Below the pieces are notes generated by a model. It was not told the DNA's origin and searched no databases. It saw only the letters and a program-made list of their open reading frames with translations. This document shows, in pieces, positions 6,719 through 10,820 of a stretch of DNA of 44,328 nt (within the stretch, counting starts at the first letter, position 1; the number at the start of each line of letters is the position of its first letter). The position numbers were made by a program, and so were the translations under genes. The stretch is from Minisyncoccota bacterium (GTDB lineage Bacteria > Patescibacteriota > Minisyncoccia > Phycocordibacterales > UBA918). The stretch spans positions 1-44,328 of the forward strand of contig JALHRC010000009.1 of the NCBI GenBank assembly GCA_022841645.1, written 5' to 3'.

Positions 6719-7030
6719 ATGCCTACCAGGTCCTCAAAGACTTTTAGGGTAAAGGAGGCCCAGCTTGCGGCAGGGAAGGGACAAGCGACTTCGTGGTACG
6801 TCTACATGGTGCGCTGCGCTGACGACACTCTCTATACCGGTATCACGACCGATCTCGCTCGTCGCGTGGCTGAACACAATGGCCCCAAAGCCGCGAAGTA
6901 CACCCGCTCGCGCCAACCGGTAACTTTGATATACCAAGAATTGGCTCCAAGTAGAGAGGTGGCACTCCAGCGTGAATATGCTCTCAAGCAATTATCCCGT
7001 ACCCAGAAAATCGCTCTAGCACGTACTTGA
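6719..7030 (+). CDS. GIY-YIG nuclease family protein (UPF0213/YhbQ-like)
   Basis: WYVYMVRCADDTLYTGITTDLARRVAEHN, AKYTRSR, ALQREYALKQL; start uncertain (6710/6719). Confidence 0.92.
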   Translation: MPTRSSKTFRVKEAQLAAGKGQATSWYVYMVRCADDTLYTGITTDLARRVAEHNGPKAAKYTRSRQPVTLIYQELAPSREVALQREYALKQLSRTQKIALART

Positions 7031-7055
7031 CAGAAAAGCAAATATAGTATTCAAT
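7027..7055 (+). promoter_or_regulatory. Candidate sigma70 promoter for the guide array and Tas-like gene
   Basis: Perfect TTGACA (7027-7032), 17-nt spacer, TTCAAT in an AT-rich tract about 16 nt before the first array unit. Confidence 0.5.
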
Positions 7056-7071
7056 ATTAATGAAAGCTCAT

Positions 7072-7599
7072 CGGTGGACTTAAGGTTGTCTAACTCTGTT
7101 GAGAAGGGAACTGTCCGCCTCAGCCAGCGAGGAGTCGCCTCGCTGGCTGACCATTTGGGAGAAGATACGTGTCGTGCTGAAAAGCAAGGAGCACGTTTTC
7201 TCTCACCCACCAAGGCTCTTGCGCCTTGGTGGGACCGTTCTTTGAGTTTGAGGGGTTTTACACGGCGTGTGCTACATTTGCACGTTGGTCGGAAATACCC
7301 CTCACCCGAGCGGATTCGTCCGCTCGGGACCATTTGGGGCGAAGAGAGGACACGTGCCAGCTGGCTAGTGGCTGACTGTCGCTCTACCCGAGGGTGCAAA
7401 CCCTCGGGACTGTTTGGGTGGTTTGGACATCGTTGCTAACGGCGACCATGCCAGTACTACTCAGCCCGAGCGCTTGCGCTCGGGCACCCTTCAAAGCGTT
7501 TCAAGATGGAACGTTTTGAAGGGGAACGAACAGGAAATTGTCTTCTCAGAAGATAATCTACACTCTGTTCCTCTTCCACGCGCACTTGTGTGCGTGGGG
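7072..7599 (+). ncRNA. Upstream structured dual-spacer guide array (6 units, TIGR/bridge-RNA-like)
   Basis: Units at about 7072-7120, 7156-7205, 7249-7304, 7335-7386, 7415-7463, 7521-7573; each is stem, ~10 variable nt, hairpin, ~10 variable nt, stem, separated by GC-rich hairpins; G-U pairs favour the + strand. Confidence 0.8.
7239..7524 (+). repeat. 286-bp direct repeat, copy 1
   Basis: Identical by eye to 9346-9631. Confidence 0.93.
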
Positions 7600-7621
7600 C
7601 ACCTTGACAGGAGTAATCAGA

Positions 7622-9157
7622 ATGACCCGATTCATCGGAATCACCCATCGGGTGAAGCATACCGCCGACGGCGAGGCGCGACCGACACTGGTCGTGCTCG
7701 TCGAGGGTGACAAGACGACGCGCTACGAACTCGATAATGAACAGGCCGAACTCGACTTCGTGCTTGGCAGGTTCCCGACGGCGTGGCGAAACGCCACGCC
7801 CGAGGACAATCCGGCCAACTTCGCGCCGCACCACGGCAAGTGGAAGAGCGTGAGTACGGGCGAGTCCTCGGATGGTATCCCGGAGTGTCAGCTGCGCCGC
7901 GAGGGCAAGATCCTCTATCGGCTTCGACAGGTGCCGGCTGCCTTCGACGGTCTCTGCTCGGGCGACCGCGTTGGAATGATCCTCGGCGGTTCCGGCGATT
8001 ACCTCGCCTACGCACTCTCGCGGCAGGCCATGAAGATCGGCGCTGCCGTGTTGCGTATTCCGGCGTTCGTGCTCAAGGCACGGCGCGGGGAAGCGAATGT
8101 TGCGGAAGACGCCATGCTCCTGGCCACGCTCGTGCGTGACGAGGAGCGCAGCTTCTACCCGCTCGCTGAGACCGATCAAAACCTCATCCGCGCGCGCGAG
8201 TCCTGGCGGGCCCTTCACGAAGCCATGCAGGCGCGTATCGCCGCCGAGCAGCGCAAGCGCCAGCTTGTCATCGGTCAGATCTTCACCGCCCCCGACGGCA
8301 TCTACCCCGAAGGCGGCATCGAGAAGGCCTACGATGCGATCAAGGCCTCCGACCCGATCCTTCAGGGGCTCGTGGCGGAGGAAGGGAGGCGTGAGCGCGA
8401 GCTCGTCGCCGCCCTCGAGAAGGTGCCCGCGTATACGCAGCTCCTTAAGCCTATCGAGGGCGTGGGGCCGCGTATCGCTGGACGCATCATCGCTGCCATC
8501 GTGGACATCCGTCGCTTCGGTGAAGACCTCACCGAAGAGGAGATGAAGATGATGGAGGAGAGCTACGTGCGCAGCGACGAGCACAAAAAGCTCGGCAGGC
8601 TTGCCGAGAACGCAGCGCTTGTCGGTGCGCGGCAGTACAAGACTGAGTACGCGCGCGTGGAGGCCATCGCCACCAAAGTGCGTGATGCGGGCAGGGCCGA
8701 TGAGGCCTGGCACCTCTTCGCACACCTGAAGGAGATGGAGACGCGTCGGAAGCTCCGCCGCAAGGCGAAGAGCCGCAGCGCCGCCAACCTCAAGAAGTAC
8801 ATGGGCGTGCACGTTCTGCCGGACGGCACCTTCCCGCGCCGTAAGCGCGGGGTGGTGGCCAACTGGCATGGCGATGCGCGCCAGGCGCTCTACCTGGCGG
8901 CTGACCAGTTCAATCGTCGGCCTGACTCGGTGTGGGGGAAGGAGCTGCGGGCCGCCAAGGCAAGGCTCCGCGTTATCCACCCCGAGCCAATCATGGTGGA
9001 GAACGGCGGTGGCAAGAAGGTGAAGCGCTACACCGATGGCCATATCCACAAGATGGCCATCTGGCGGACACTCTCGCGGTTCGTCGAACGGCTCTACGTG
9101 GAGTGGTCGGCGCTGGAGGCGCCGCCCCGGCAGCAGGAGTTGCCGAAGGCGGCGTGA
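7622..9157 (+). CDS. IS110/Nop-domain RNA-guided protein (Tas-like) with degenerate RuvC-like N-terminus, 511 aa
   Basis: AGGAG RBS then ATG 7622; KPIEGVGPRIAGRIIAAIVDIRRF and SAANLKKYMGV match the IS110 C-terminal (Transposase_20/Nop-like) pattern; C-terminal GHIHKMAIWRTLSRFVERLYVEW; N-terminal FIGITH, VGMILGG and AEDAMLLA appear to align with IS110 DEDD motifs but lack most acidic residues. Confidence 0.8.
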   Translation: MTRFIGITHRVKHTADGEARPTLVVLVEGDKTTRYELDNEQAELDFVLGRFPTAWRNATPEDNPANFAPHHGKWKSVSTGESSDGIPECQLRREGKILYRLRQVPAAFDGLCSGDRVGMILGGSGDYLAYALSRQAMKIGAAVLRIPAFVLKARRGEANVAEDAMLLATLVRDEERSFYPLAETDQNLIRARESWRALHEAMQARIAAEQRKRQLVIGQIFTAPDGIYPEGGIEKAYDAIKASDPILQGLVAEEGRRERELVAALEKVPAYTQLLKPIEGVGPRIAGRIIAAIVDIRRFGEDLTEEEMKMMEESYVRSDEHKKLGRLAENAALVGARQYKTEYARVEAIATKVRDAGRADEAWHLFAHLKEMETRRKLRRKAKSRSAANLKKYMGVHVLPDGTFPRRKRGVVANWHGDARQALYLAADQFNRRPDSVWGKELRAAKARLRVIHPEPIMVENGGGKKVKRYTDGHIHKMAIWRTLSRFVERLYVEWSALEAPPRQQELPKAA

Positions 9158-9163
9158 AGGGAT

Positions 9164-9953
9164 TGGTGGACAAACGTCGGACTGCTTTGAAGAGCGAGGC
9201 CTCTTTTGTCCACCACAGCCGGCGCGGCAACGCCGCGCCGGCTGACCATTTGGGAGATTTACAACGTAGTACCGTTTTGGGTGCTGCTCGACGTGTCTCC
9301 CACCCACCACGGCGCAAGCTCACGCAAGTGACGTGGTGGGATTGATCTTTGAGTTTGAGGGGTTTTACACGGCGTGTGCTACATTTGCACGTTGGTCGGA
9401 AATACCCCTCACCCGAGCGGATTCGTCCGCTCGGGACCATTTGGGGCGAAGAGAGGACACGTGCCAGCTGGCTAGTGGCTGACTGTCGCTCTACCCGAGG
9501 GTGCAAACCCTCGGGACTGTTTGGGTGGTTTGGACATCGTTGCTAACGGCGACCATGCCAGTACTACTCAGCCCGAGCGCTTGCGCTCGGGCACCCTTCA
9601 AAGCGTTTCAAGATGGAACGTTTTGAAGGGGGAACAAGAAGTTGACTATTCGTAAGGATGCTGGCGGCTTTGTTCTCCTCCCATATGCGCAAGTGTATGG
9701 GACCGTTCTTTACAGTTTGAGGGGTGAGAAGCGGAGTGCGCCCACTCGCGACATCCGAAGTACCCCTCACCCGAGCGGAGTAATCCGCTCGGGACCATTG
9801 AAGCGACCTGTGCTCCGCTGTGTTGACGGCCCGACCATTGTCGCTTCACCCGAGGGTGCAAACCCTCGGGAGTGTTTGGGTGATGGAAGCGGAACTGCGC
9901 CTACTTGCGCGGTAAACCTTTGTCACCCAGCCCAGCCGGCAAACCGGCTGGGC
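9164..9953 (+). ncRNA. Downstream guide array, block 1 (9 units)
   Basis: Units at about 9164-9215, 9251-9302, 9356-9411, 9442-9493, 9522-9570, 9628-9678, 9718-9769, 9799-9848, 9877-9929; same architecture as the upstream array. Confidence 0.8.
9346..9631 (+). repeat. 286-bp direct repeat, copy 2
   Basis: Identical by eye to 7239-7524. Confidence 0.93.
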
Positions 9954-9960
9954 TTTTTTT
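9930..9960 (+). terminator. Intrinsic terminator inside the array
   Basis: gcccagccgg-caaa-ccggctgggc followed by T7. Confidence 0.8.
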
Positions 9961-9992
9961 AGAAAAACGTGGTATTTTGTAGAAGAAAGTTT

Positions 9993-10785
9993 TGGTCGAC
10001 TTGGCTAGCCCTGCTGCAAAGCGTTGCTATGTTTGTCGATCACGGCCACCAGCGAGGCGCTGCCTTGTTGTTGGCTGAGAATTTGGAAGAAGAATCAGTC
10101 ATTGCCGTAAGGCTTTGTTCCGTCTTTCTTCCACCACCGCGGCGTTTGAGCCGCGGTGGACCGTTCTTCACCCTAATGGATTACTCCGTTAGGAACCGTT
10201 TGAGCCATGTACGGCACGCTGCGCTTTGCGTTTCGGCCGAAATGTGGCTCAACCCGAGGGTGTACATCCTCGGGAGTATTTGGGTGGTGATGCAAGAAGT
10301 GCTCTAAAGAGTGTCCGGCACGGTACCACCCAGCCCGAGCGCATGCGCTCGGGCACCCTTCAAAGCTTTTCAGATTGGAAATTTTTGAAGGGGAGACGTA
10401 TCGAGGTCTGCCTGTATGGGTTACCCAACCCTTGTTTCCCTCCACGTGCACTTGTGCGCGTGGACCTTGTTCTATATTAGAGTTTAAGGGGTGCTAAGCA
10501 CGATGTGGTCATGTCCACGAGTTGCTGATTACCCTTTACCCTAGCGGATTCGTCCGCTAGGGACTGTTGAAGCGACTTCCGGATCGTTGCCAAGAGTGTG
10601 GCGAGCGTTGACGTGTCGCTTCACCCGAGGGTGCGAACTTTCGGGAGAATTAGGGTGGTTACGAGACCGTTGCTCACACATATGGTGAGTGGCAGCACAA
10701 CTACCATCCAGCCCGAGCGCATGCGCTCGGGCACCCTTCGGAACATGGACATATGGTTGCGAGAACGCACGTCATTCTGTCTTCC
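9993..10785 (+). ncRNA. Downstream guide array, block 2 (8 clear units plus 1 degenerate)
   Basis: Units at about 9993-10042, 10084-10133, 10201-10251, 10281-10332, 10390-10441, 10485-10538, 10568-10623, 10651-10710, with a degenerate one at about 10740-10785. Confidence 0.78.
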
Positions 10786-10820
10786 AGCCCCGCCAGTGCT
10801 TTGCATCGGCGGGGTTTCTT
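10786..10820 (+). terminator. Probable terminator ending the array
   Basis: agccccgcc...ggcggggttt followed by a T-rich tail. Confidence 0.6.

Follow-up and report, generated by a model that had tools for sequence, protein, structure and literature searches.

A single gene that lies between two long stretches of hairpin-rich, non-coding DNA raises the question of what these flanks are and what the gene does with them. The locus that poses it spans positions 7027-10820 of a 44,328-nt stretch of DNA from a Minisyncoccota bacterium (assembly GCA_022841645.1, contig JALHRC010000009.1). This whole stretch is referred to here as the window; all coordinates are positions in it, with + for the forward strand. 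An earlier note, made from the sequence alone, had described a 511-aa gene between about 0.5 kb and about 1.65 kb of non-coding DNA and proposed an RNA-guided system. This layout holds. The single long open reading frame (ORF) extends over 7538-9157 (+), and its likely start is the ATG at 7622, which gives a tas gene at 7622-9157 (+; 511 aa plus stop). An AGGAG ribosome-binding site can be read at 7609-7613 (+), 8 nt 5' of the ATG. The non-coding flanks cover 7031-7621 (591 nt) on the 5' side and 9158 to ~10820 (~1.66 kb) on the 3' side, with no convincing gene in either.

We conclude that this is very probably a TIGR-Tas locus of the stem-loop type of the Candidate Phyla Radiation (CPR), made up of a gene for a nuclease-dead TasR and, on both sides of it, arrays that hold 24 tigRNA units (21 guides). 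The locus was compared with Faure et al. 2025 (PMC12045711), Xu et al. 2026 (bioRxiv 10.64898/2026.09.09.750476) and Guan et al. 2026 (bioRxiv 10.64898/2026.08.11.744272), in the passages of these sources that bear on it. It is a new example and not a new kind, because the kind was named in 2025 by Faure et al. and characterised in the 2026 preprint by Xu et al. The suggestion in the earlier note that the architecture might be an undescribed subtype is therefore not supported, as the CPR clade of dead TasR proteins already appears in the relevant passages of both papers.

Family, fold and RuvC site of the Tas protein

The protein matches the NCBIfam model NF052498 (TIGR_Tas_endo, NCBIfam 20.0) with 114.6 bits, above the cut-off of 100 (E=6e-33). 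The sole solved structure related to it by sequence is TaTasR (9mty_A), retrieved with E=4e-9 from the single sequence and with E=1.7e-22 from a 48-sequence family profile. An AlphaFold model of the protein, computed from the alignment of this family, is confident (predicted local distance difference test, pLDDT, 93.5; predicted template modelling score, pTM, 0.88). A Foldseek search of the PDB with this model placed TasR 9MTY first (E=2.5e-9, probability 1.00), followed by the recombinases IS621 (8WT9, E=1.7e-5) and ISCro4 (9T56, E=1.2e-4) and then by TasH; beyond these structures, no PDB match had an E <0.001. The structural comparison with IS110, Nop5 and Tas proposed in the earlier note thus has TasR as its closest match, and together with the NCBIfam assignment it supports the proposed kinship of a multi-guide, dual-spacer system with TIGR-Tas.

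According to the account in Faure et al., TaTasR has the same domain order (RuvC, coiled coil, Nop C-terminal domain (CTD)) and the same dual 9-nt spacers, and its box D (UG) and box C (CCA) are joined by a pair between the G of the former and a C of the latter. It differs in being a 331-aa active nuclease (D11) served by 36-nt tigRNAs from two alternating conserved repeats, whereas the locus studied here encodes a dead protein of 511 aa and stem-loop units of ~50 nt with variable stems.

The enlarged effector had been described in the earlier note as looking catalytically dead, and three of the four acidic positions of its RuvC site are indeed lost, with only D163 kept; the site looks dead. 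In this protein, the first strand ends with T at position 8, where R stands in 32 of the 48 family sequences and D or E in none of them. After the fourth core strand, the motif GGSG at 122-125 sits where the catalytic E would be expected and is nearly invariant (G122 in 48/48, G123 in 47/48, S124 in 46/48 and G125 in 48/48). Positions 160 and 163 align in HMMER with the D-x-x-D of TaTasR; the first is V here and K in 40/48, while D163 is conserved in 47/48. Residues that are invariant across the family are retained in this protein.

Outside the catalytic site, 78 residues (38-115; one helix and four strands) separate the strands at 31-37 and 116-120 in the DSSP assignment of the model, the strand numbering being our own. 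The Nop/CTD part contains an insertion relative to TaTasR of ~88 aa (residues 301-388) that forms four helices. The C-terminal tail after the last helix (472-499) has 12 residues, none of them Y or H, so that a Y/H processing loop is absent. A homodimer prediction for residues 176-503 scored 0.00 against a mark of 0.42 and counts neither way.

The closest counterpart is CsTasR from Candidatus Staskawiczbacteria, likewise a CPR host, the likeness being judged from the published description and not from an alignment of sequences or structures. In the passages of Xu et al. that describe it, CsTasR (547 aa) belongs to a CPR clade with an expanded RuvC domain and carries R8 and V126 at catalytic positions. 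Its ~80-residue beta3-beta4 insertion consists of a short helix, a curved sheet and loops, its CTD insertion wraps the tigRNA stem and the Y/H processing loop is lacking. The enlarged dead RuvC, the beta3-beta4 insertion of some 80 aa, the Nop/CTD insertion and the missing loop are thus common to both proteins. R8 is the consensus of the family studied here, although this protein itself has T8. In Faure et al., too, the parts compared describe a CPR TasR clade whose RuvC is inactive, whose Nop part carries large insertions and whose arrays are of the stem type, and stem-loop arrays are described as well.

Given that the NCBIfam family is named for an RNA-guided endonuclease, that the RuvC fold is kept and that D163 is so widely conserved, the protein might be taken for an active RNA-guided nuclease that cuts invading DNA in defence, like TaTasR or TasH. 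We regard this as extremely unlikely. At the other acidic positions, this protein has T, G and V and the family has R, G and K, and, in the experiments described by Xu et al., the related CsTasR and PateTasR did not cleave DNA in vitro. Moreover, no separate nuclease is linked to tas: the GIY-YIG gene found upstream of it here lies beside tas in 0 of 73 homologous loci.

Stem-loop units, separator hairpins and repeats of the arrays

Folded piecewise, the flanks of tas show a regular alternation of a GC-rich hairpin (9-13 bp stem), a short U-rich linker (ACCAUUU type) and a stem-loop unit. Delimited by coordinates, 24 units lie in the flanks; B3-B5 are exact copies of A3-A5, which leaves 21 distinct units, used for the statistics on distinct units given below. 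Both figures agree with the counts of the earlier note. Each unit opens with a 7-nt 5' arm and closes with a 7-nt 3' arm; between them lie the first and the second segment, set apart by an inner hairpin of 8-19 nt (2-6 bp). The first segment measures 12 nt in 24/24 units and the second in 20/24 (13, 13, 11 and 10 nt in the others), the inner hairpin separates the two segments in 24/24, and the arms pair at 7/7 positions in 22/24 units and at 6/7 in the remaining two. U (T in the DNA) is the last base of both segments in all 24 units, that is, in 42/42 segments of the distinct ones. At the box D-like position directly after a segment, a G is found in the inner hairpin of 18/21 units and in the 3' arm of 12/21.

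The pairing is conserved and the segments are not, as the earlier note had proposed. Across the 21 distinct units, 145 of the 147 arm positions are paired, compared with a mean of 104.3 and a maximum of 119 in 2000 partner shuffles. Arm position 4 covaries through all four Watson-Crick types (GC 6, AT 6, CG 5, TA 4). G-U pairs, which can form only in RNA of the + strand, make up 15 of the arm pairs and 14 of the 173 pairs in the 17 distinct separator hairpins. At segment positions 3-11, the 9-nt cores, entropy is near maximal (1.7-2.0 bits); all 21 first cores are distinct, as are all 21 second cores, with a mean pairwise difference of 6.6 out of 9. Among these units, no complementarity beyond chance was found between the two cores of a unit.

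A strict detector, which requires perfect 7-bp arms, segments of 9-14 nt with terminal U and an inner hairpin starting with G, returned 15 matches on the + strand of the flanks (2.25 kb). Elsewhere in the window, it returned four on the + strand, and on the - strand four, one of them within the array. Over both strands of the whole 1.12-Mb genome, it found 270 units, 255 of them outside the locus (~2.24 Mb). Simple arithmetic from this genome-wide count gives about 0.26 expected matches in the flanks, against the 15 observed.

When arm sequence and following hairpin are considered together, the units fall into six scaffold types in the fixed order T1-H1-T2-H2-T3-H3-T4-H4-T5-H5-long hairpin-T6-H6. 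This super-repeat occurs five times, with losses: one copy lies 5' of tas and four lie 3'. The six scaffold types, the separator hairpins and the arrays on both sides of the gene are therefore present as the earlier note described them. Scaffolds of one type are 70-90% alike, but units that share a type do not have more similar spacers than units that differ in it (5.33 vs 4.71 identical positions of 18 for same and other type, reached by 338 of 5000 label permutations). The arrays grew by duplication of six-unit blocks followed by complete spacer turnover.

A conserved GC hairpin follows every unit within 0-8 nt on its 3' side, comprising 22 separator hairpins and two terminator-like hairpins. 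The 17 distinct separator hairpins, with their 173 stem pairs read inward to the first non-pair, have unbroken stems of 9-12 bp. A long hairpin (LH) of 37 nt with a 17-bp stem, into which spacers would not fit, lies 3' of H5 in three super-repeats. The repeat finder retrieved three hairpin-centred families in the flanks, each with four to five copies that are 70-100% alike, as well as a 298-nt direct repeat of 99% identity at 7227-7524 and 9334-9631. The exact core of the latter is 286 nt long (7239-7524 = 9346-9631), with one copy on each side of tas.

Read along the + strand, on which all the features of the arrays lie, the upstream array begins with unit A1 (type 1, 7073-7119), hairpin H1 (7123-7147), unit A2 (type 2, 7157-7204) and hairpin H2 (7206-7233). 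Copy 1 of the 286-nt repeat (7239-7524) then holds A3 (type 3, 7250-7303), H3 (7305-7328), A4 (type 4, 7337-7384), H4 (7387-7408), A5 (type 5, 7416-7462), H5 (7464-7485) and the first copy of LH (7487-7523). Unit A6 (type 6, 7521-7573), within the tas leader, and H6 (7574-7599) complete this side. Downstream of tas follow B1 (type 1, 9165-9214), H1' (9218-9242), B2 (type 2, 9252-9301) and H2' (9305-9340), which has a 9-bp stem and a long loop. Copy 2 of the repeat (9346-9631) contains B3, B4 and B5 (9357-9410, 9444-9491 and 9523-9569, identical to A3, A4 and A5), each with its hairpin H3 (9412-9435), H4 (9494-9515) or H5 (9571-9592), and the second copy of LH (9594-9630). After it come C1 (type 6, 9631-9676) with a separator hairpin at 9679-9702, C2 (type 3, 9719-9768) with H3 (9770-9793), C3 (type 4, 9801-9846) with H4 (9849-9870) and C4 (type 5, 9878-9928). 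An intrinsic-terminator-like hairpin of 11 bp with a T run (9929-9961) ends this first downstream sub-array.

The sequence resumes with D0 (type 1-like, 9994-10041) and an H1-like hairpin (10050-10070), then D1 (type 2, 10085-10132) and an H2-like hairpin (10134-10159). The H3-like hairpin at 10172-10193 has no unit before it: the type-3 unit expected between the H2-like and H3-like hairpins of this fourth super-repeat is gone, only 12 nt being left (10160-10171), and a whole unit has thus been cleanly lost. D3 (type 4 position, 10202-10250), H4 (10253-10274), D4 (type 5, 10282-10331), H5 (10333-10354) and the third copy of LH (10356-10392) follow. The last group comprises E0 (type 6, 10391-10440) with H6' (10441-10464), E1 (type 3, 10486-10537) with an H3 in which a compensatory change gives CCCTAG/CTAGGG (10539-10562), and E2 (type 4, 10570-10621) with an H4 that folds on the + strand alone because it contains two G-U pairs (10624-10645). 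E3 (type 5, 10653-10709) with H5 (10711-10732) precedes E4 (10740-10785), an irregular unit with arms paired at 6/7 and a second segment of 10 nt. A terminator-like hairpin with a T-rich tail (10786-10825) marks the end of the locus.

Irregular units such as E4, the loss at 10160-10171 and the lack of a convincing promoter could be taken as signs of a decaying or silent relic in which gene and arrays no longer function. We give this very little credence, as the reading frame is intact and yields a confident model, the family-invariant residues are kept, and neither the arm pairing (145/147) nor the separator stems, unbroken at 9-12 bp over 173 pairs in 17 hairpins, have decayed.

The identical 286-nt direct repeats around the gene also suggest an insertion sequence of the IS110 family, with the repeats as element ends and the flanks as bridge RNA. 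The island was not found in relatives, and IS621 and ISCro4, whose RuvC-like plus Nop-like architecture and guide RNAs with two loops resemble those of this locus, are among the fold matches. Furthermore, the only Pfam match is a sub-threshold one to Transposase_20 (E=0.11), an IS110 model of NCBIfam reaches E=1e-8, and most homologues are labelled transposase or hypothetical protein in the databases. Annotation as a transposase had been predicted in the earlier note, although NCBIfam 20.0 now names the protein. The probability of such an element is nonetheless close to nil. Against cut-offs of 140 and 180, the IS110 models of NCBIfam reach only 34.5 and 17.5 bits. IS110 elements have one bridge RNA, an active DEDD site and a serine recombinase domain, and they are mobile and multi-copy; none of this applies here, where DEDD is lost, the genome holds a single copy and the flanks consist of 24 dual-spacer units instead of one bridge RNA. 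What is repeated over 286 nt is a piece of the array (units 3-5 of the super-repeat) and not an element end.

Some further observations concern the repeats and hairpins of this TIGR-Tas locus. Contigs of four DNA runs, all from a single study that may have yielded this DNA, cover it in pieces that are broken at the 286-nt repeat and speak neither for nor against a tas-less variant. In these contigs, the word depth of the tas piece (7495-9375) is 1.4-2.1x that of the upstream flank (6800-7268), and that of the 286-nt repeat piece is ~2x that of the same flank; contig depth is a poor measure, and the differences could reflect strain mixtures or copy-number variation. The CCCGAG...CTCGGG foot of the separator hairpins occurs at six other sites of the genome: contig C1 (35223-35241, 35250-35268 and 69954-69972), contig C18 (18143-18161), contig C5 (14056-14079) and the window itself (29126-29148). 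They may serve as terminators, or as REP-like elements that rely on a common host factor. Three - strand ORFs overlap tas or the arrays, namely 7457-9310 (617 aa), 7016-7399 (127 aa) and 8991-9506 (171 aa). The last two have a common N-terminus because both lie in the repeat, and all three are probably artefacts of high GC and repeats.

Homologous loci and genomic setting

The family comprises 541 clusters at 50% identity with an E of up to 0.001, or 287 with an E of up to 1e-30. It is essentially confined to CPR, with named members in Uhrbacteria, Adlerbacteria, Andersenbacteria, Kaiserbacteria, Paceibacterota and others. We collected 73 homologous loci, 31 from species genomes and 42 from metagenomes; one of them (L031), which matched over only 36 residues, was excluded from the first of the two counts that follow, leaving 72. 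A detector derived from the locus under study found 467 units on the tas strand of these 72 loci and 47 on the opposite strand, with at least three units in 50 of the 72. When exact 12/12 geometry was demanded and the G of the inner hairpin was not, the 73 loci yielded 508 units vs 28 on the other strand. The flanks of homologues therefore carry the same unit fold with different spacers, in agreement with the prediction of the earlier note. The unit consensus of the homologues is symmetric (GAC|GA-N9-U|GUY...RAC|GA-N9-U|GUC), with positions 3-11 nearly uniform and with the terminal U of the segments imposed by the detector. In L001, whose protein is 41% identical, the arm types GGGTGAG/CTCACCC and GGCGGAC/GTCCGCC are common with those found here. 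A run of N interrupts the array 3' of the tas homologue at ~5767-5865 of L002.

No neighbouring gene is conserved beside tas, with GIY-YIG found in 0 of the 73 loci, typA in one and M23 in one. Linkers between adjacent units of 30 species-genome loci are at most 12 nt long in 48 of 86 cases, and only 10 of 30 linkers of 20-60 nt in these loci contain a hairpin of at least 8 bp. One homologous locus (L005) has a linker hairpin whose CCCGAGCGG foot is identical to that of the present locus. In one metagenome scan, no locus exceeded ~47% full-length identity, hence no close kin was available with which to compare the separator hairpins.

The organism's genome is 1.12 Mb in size and 97.9% complete, and tas occurs in it as a single copy, with a small GIY-YIG gene upstream and typA/bipA downstream. 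The sole + strand match of sigma-70 type in 6600-11100 lies at 10832-10860 (TCGACA-17 nt-TATTAT, 10/12) and is probably the typA promoter, because it is situated 3' of the last array terminator and 5' of typA. A search with this query found tas in none of 40 relatives, which comprised 24 congeneric species and 16 further families within the order. Five congeneric genomes have neither tas nor an array in the 0.4-1.2 kb that precede typA. The first gene shared beyond this gap is GIY-YIG in G007 and G022, p5297 in a third genome and p6008 in a fourth; the piece from G019 has neither typA nor GIY-YIG on it. The GC content is 65.0% for tas and 58.8% for the 3.9-kb island, compared with 52.3% for the genome, and only 0.9% of 3.9-kb windows reach the island value. 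This atypical GC, the failure to find tas in the 40 relatives and the different occupation of the site in same-genus genomes point to horizontal acquisition of the island.

A search for orphan arrays elsewhere in the genome gave only two clusters of three hits (C11 and C20), which have unrelated sequences and were judged to be chance. Further along the window, a 17-nt unit is perfectly duplicated in tandem at 33353-33386 (TRF score 68).

Targets, proposed mechanism and known relatives

Several points weigh against reading the locus as a working, DNA-binding TIGR-Tas system. The earlier note had given it a promoter and terminators of its own. The terminators stand, with a strong match at 9929-9954 followed by seven T and a weaker one at 10786-10815; the promoter is not convincing. 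The candidate at 7027-7055 (+) consists of TTGACA (7027-7032) and, after 17 nt, the poor hexamer TTCAAT, and the list returned by the consensus scan does not include it. Xu et al. report, as a processing mark, a CUU that is conserved at the foot of the closing stem. Here a U run takes its place, with T at -3/-2 in 16 and 18 of the 21 units, and CTT stands directly at the stem base in E4 only. Box C is also weaker than in the homologues, with G at segment position 1 in 12 and 11 of 21 units. The assignment of positions 8 and 122-125 to the first two catalytic sites draws on secondary structure and on where the motifs lie. By homology with its relatives, the locus would be expressed and its transcripts processed, and a TasR dimer would bind DNA and repress its target; that the first two steps are putative counts among the points listed here.

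The last such point concerns targets. Composite 18-mers were built by joining the two 9-nt cores of a unit in both orders compatible with a two-fold symmetric dimer and, as controls, in two other orders. With up to 3 mismatches, the allowed orders had 22 and 21 matches in the organism's own genome and the controls had 20 and 15, which is chance level. No match in this genome had fewer than 2 mismatches; at 2 mismatches, there was one in the real orders and one in the controls. When both 9-mers were sought within 40 nt of each other, no arrangement was preferred. As none of the 21 guides matches the genome at 17/18 or better, the system is unlikely to regulate the organism's own chromosomal genes. 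Its probable targets are foreign DNA (a phage, another mobile element or the host cell) outside this assembly, since the own genome holds no match. Matches of 18-mers in large collections are expected by chance, a point made in Xu et al.

The organism's own ribosomal RNA (rRNA) was also tried as a target and rejected. Four spacers are perfectly complementary to it over 9 nt, against a shuffle mean of 1.0, but shuffles reach 5; with up to one mismatch, there are 34, compared with a shuffle mean of 23.9, a shuffle maximum of 37 and 28 in the antisense control. These counts bear on the idea of a box C/D-like system whose guides pair with rRNA or transfer RNA for binding or modification, the evolutionary intermediate on which a passage in Faure et al. 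speculates. The Nop-type domain, the dual guides at box C/D-like positions and a dead RuvC resembling Nop5 (the Fig. 7 legend of that paper gives Nop5 an inactive RuvC-like N-terminal domain) would suit it, as would the four rRNA complementarities. In these respects, as published accounts describe them, the locus resembles the box C/D ribonucleoproteins of archaea and eukaryotes (Nop5 plus fibrillarin), in which box C/D positions border two guides and the Nop protein is a dimer with an inactive RuvC-like domain. We consider RNA targeting very unlikely all the same: the rRNA excess lies within the shuffle range, no methyltransferase or other partner is conserved beside tas, and this locus has no fibrillarin or L7Ae neighbour. 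Rfam gave nothing at the gathering threshold in the window and, in 6900-11000, no family at an E of up to 1, whether of small nucleolar RNA or of small RNA. K-turn boxes are lacking as well, with no separate search made for the motif. The characterised relatives target DNA, CsTasR being a DNA binder in the account of Xu et al.

For the TIGR-Tas locus, the following mechanism can be proposed by homology with CsTasR and PateTasR. The arrays would be transcribed on the + strand, the first sub-array perhaps together with tas. Cuts in the U-rich linkers would release stem-loop RNAs of ~50 nt, or of ~80 nt if the trailing GC hairpin is kept. A TasR dimer may then hold one tigRNA through the Nop-type CTD, gripping the box D (U|G) and box C positions at the closing stem and at the inner hairpin. 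One 9-nt spacer would pair with one strand and the second with the other strand of a contiguous 18-bp DNA site, and the complex might block transcription or another process at its target. Binding without cutting would be expected because three of the four RuvC acidic positions are substituted.

In the description by Xu et al., CsTasR likewise has tigRNAs on both sides of its gene, each with a closing stem and two 10-nt spacers (9 nt paired) with a 5-bp stem between them, comparable to the spacers of about 9-10 nt and the small hairpin of the locus studied here. The same source reports that CsTasR represses reporters and one chromosomal gene in Escherichia coli in a guide-dependent and reversible manner. 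Our locus differs from that of CsTasR in the GC hairpin after every unit, the six-type super-repeat and the U run in place of CUU. The spacer turnover, the identical 286-nt segments around tas and the LH hairpins likewise seem peculiar to it. Structured linkers or a six-type super-repeat were not found in the passages of Xu et al. on arrays, which mention linker length only, and a literature search found no other paper on arrays with separator hairpins; neither result is proof of absence. Whether the separator hairpins and the six-scaffold super-repeat form a functional module, and hence an array subtype not yet described, is thus a separate claim and, in our judgement, a doubtful one. A separator hairpin could act as a 3' cap, as a processing signal kept in the mature guide or as a second binding site for the 88-residue helical insertion found in this TasR subgroup.

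What the earlier note observed is thus confirmed, and what it made of it is partly supported. The published catalogue counts 20,096 tas loci so far and may include this contig. The locus adds no new principle to these systems. It is a clean, complete and chromosomally anchored example of a CPR locus with a dead TasR.

Most known TIGR loci lie on short metagenomic contigs. The genome setting available here permitted statements on self-targets, on the island nature of the locus and on array growth that short contigs cannot give. The locus also offers 21 ready-made guide scaffolds of six types together with a regular separator hairpin. If its arrays did grow by block duplication and spacer turnover, spacers would be replaced inside fixed scaffolds by some mechanism, which bears on how TIGR arrays gain spacers.

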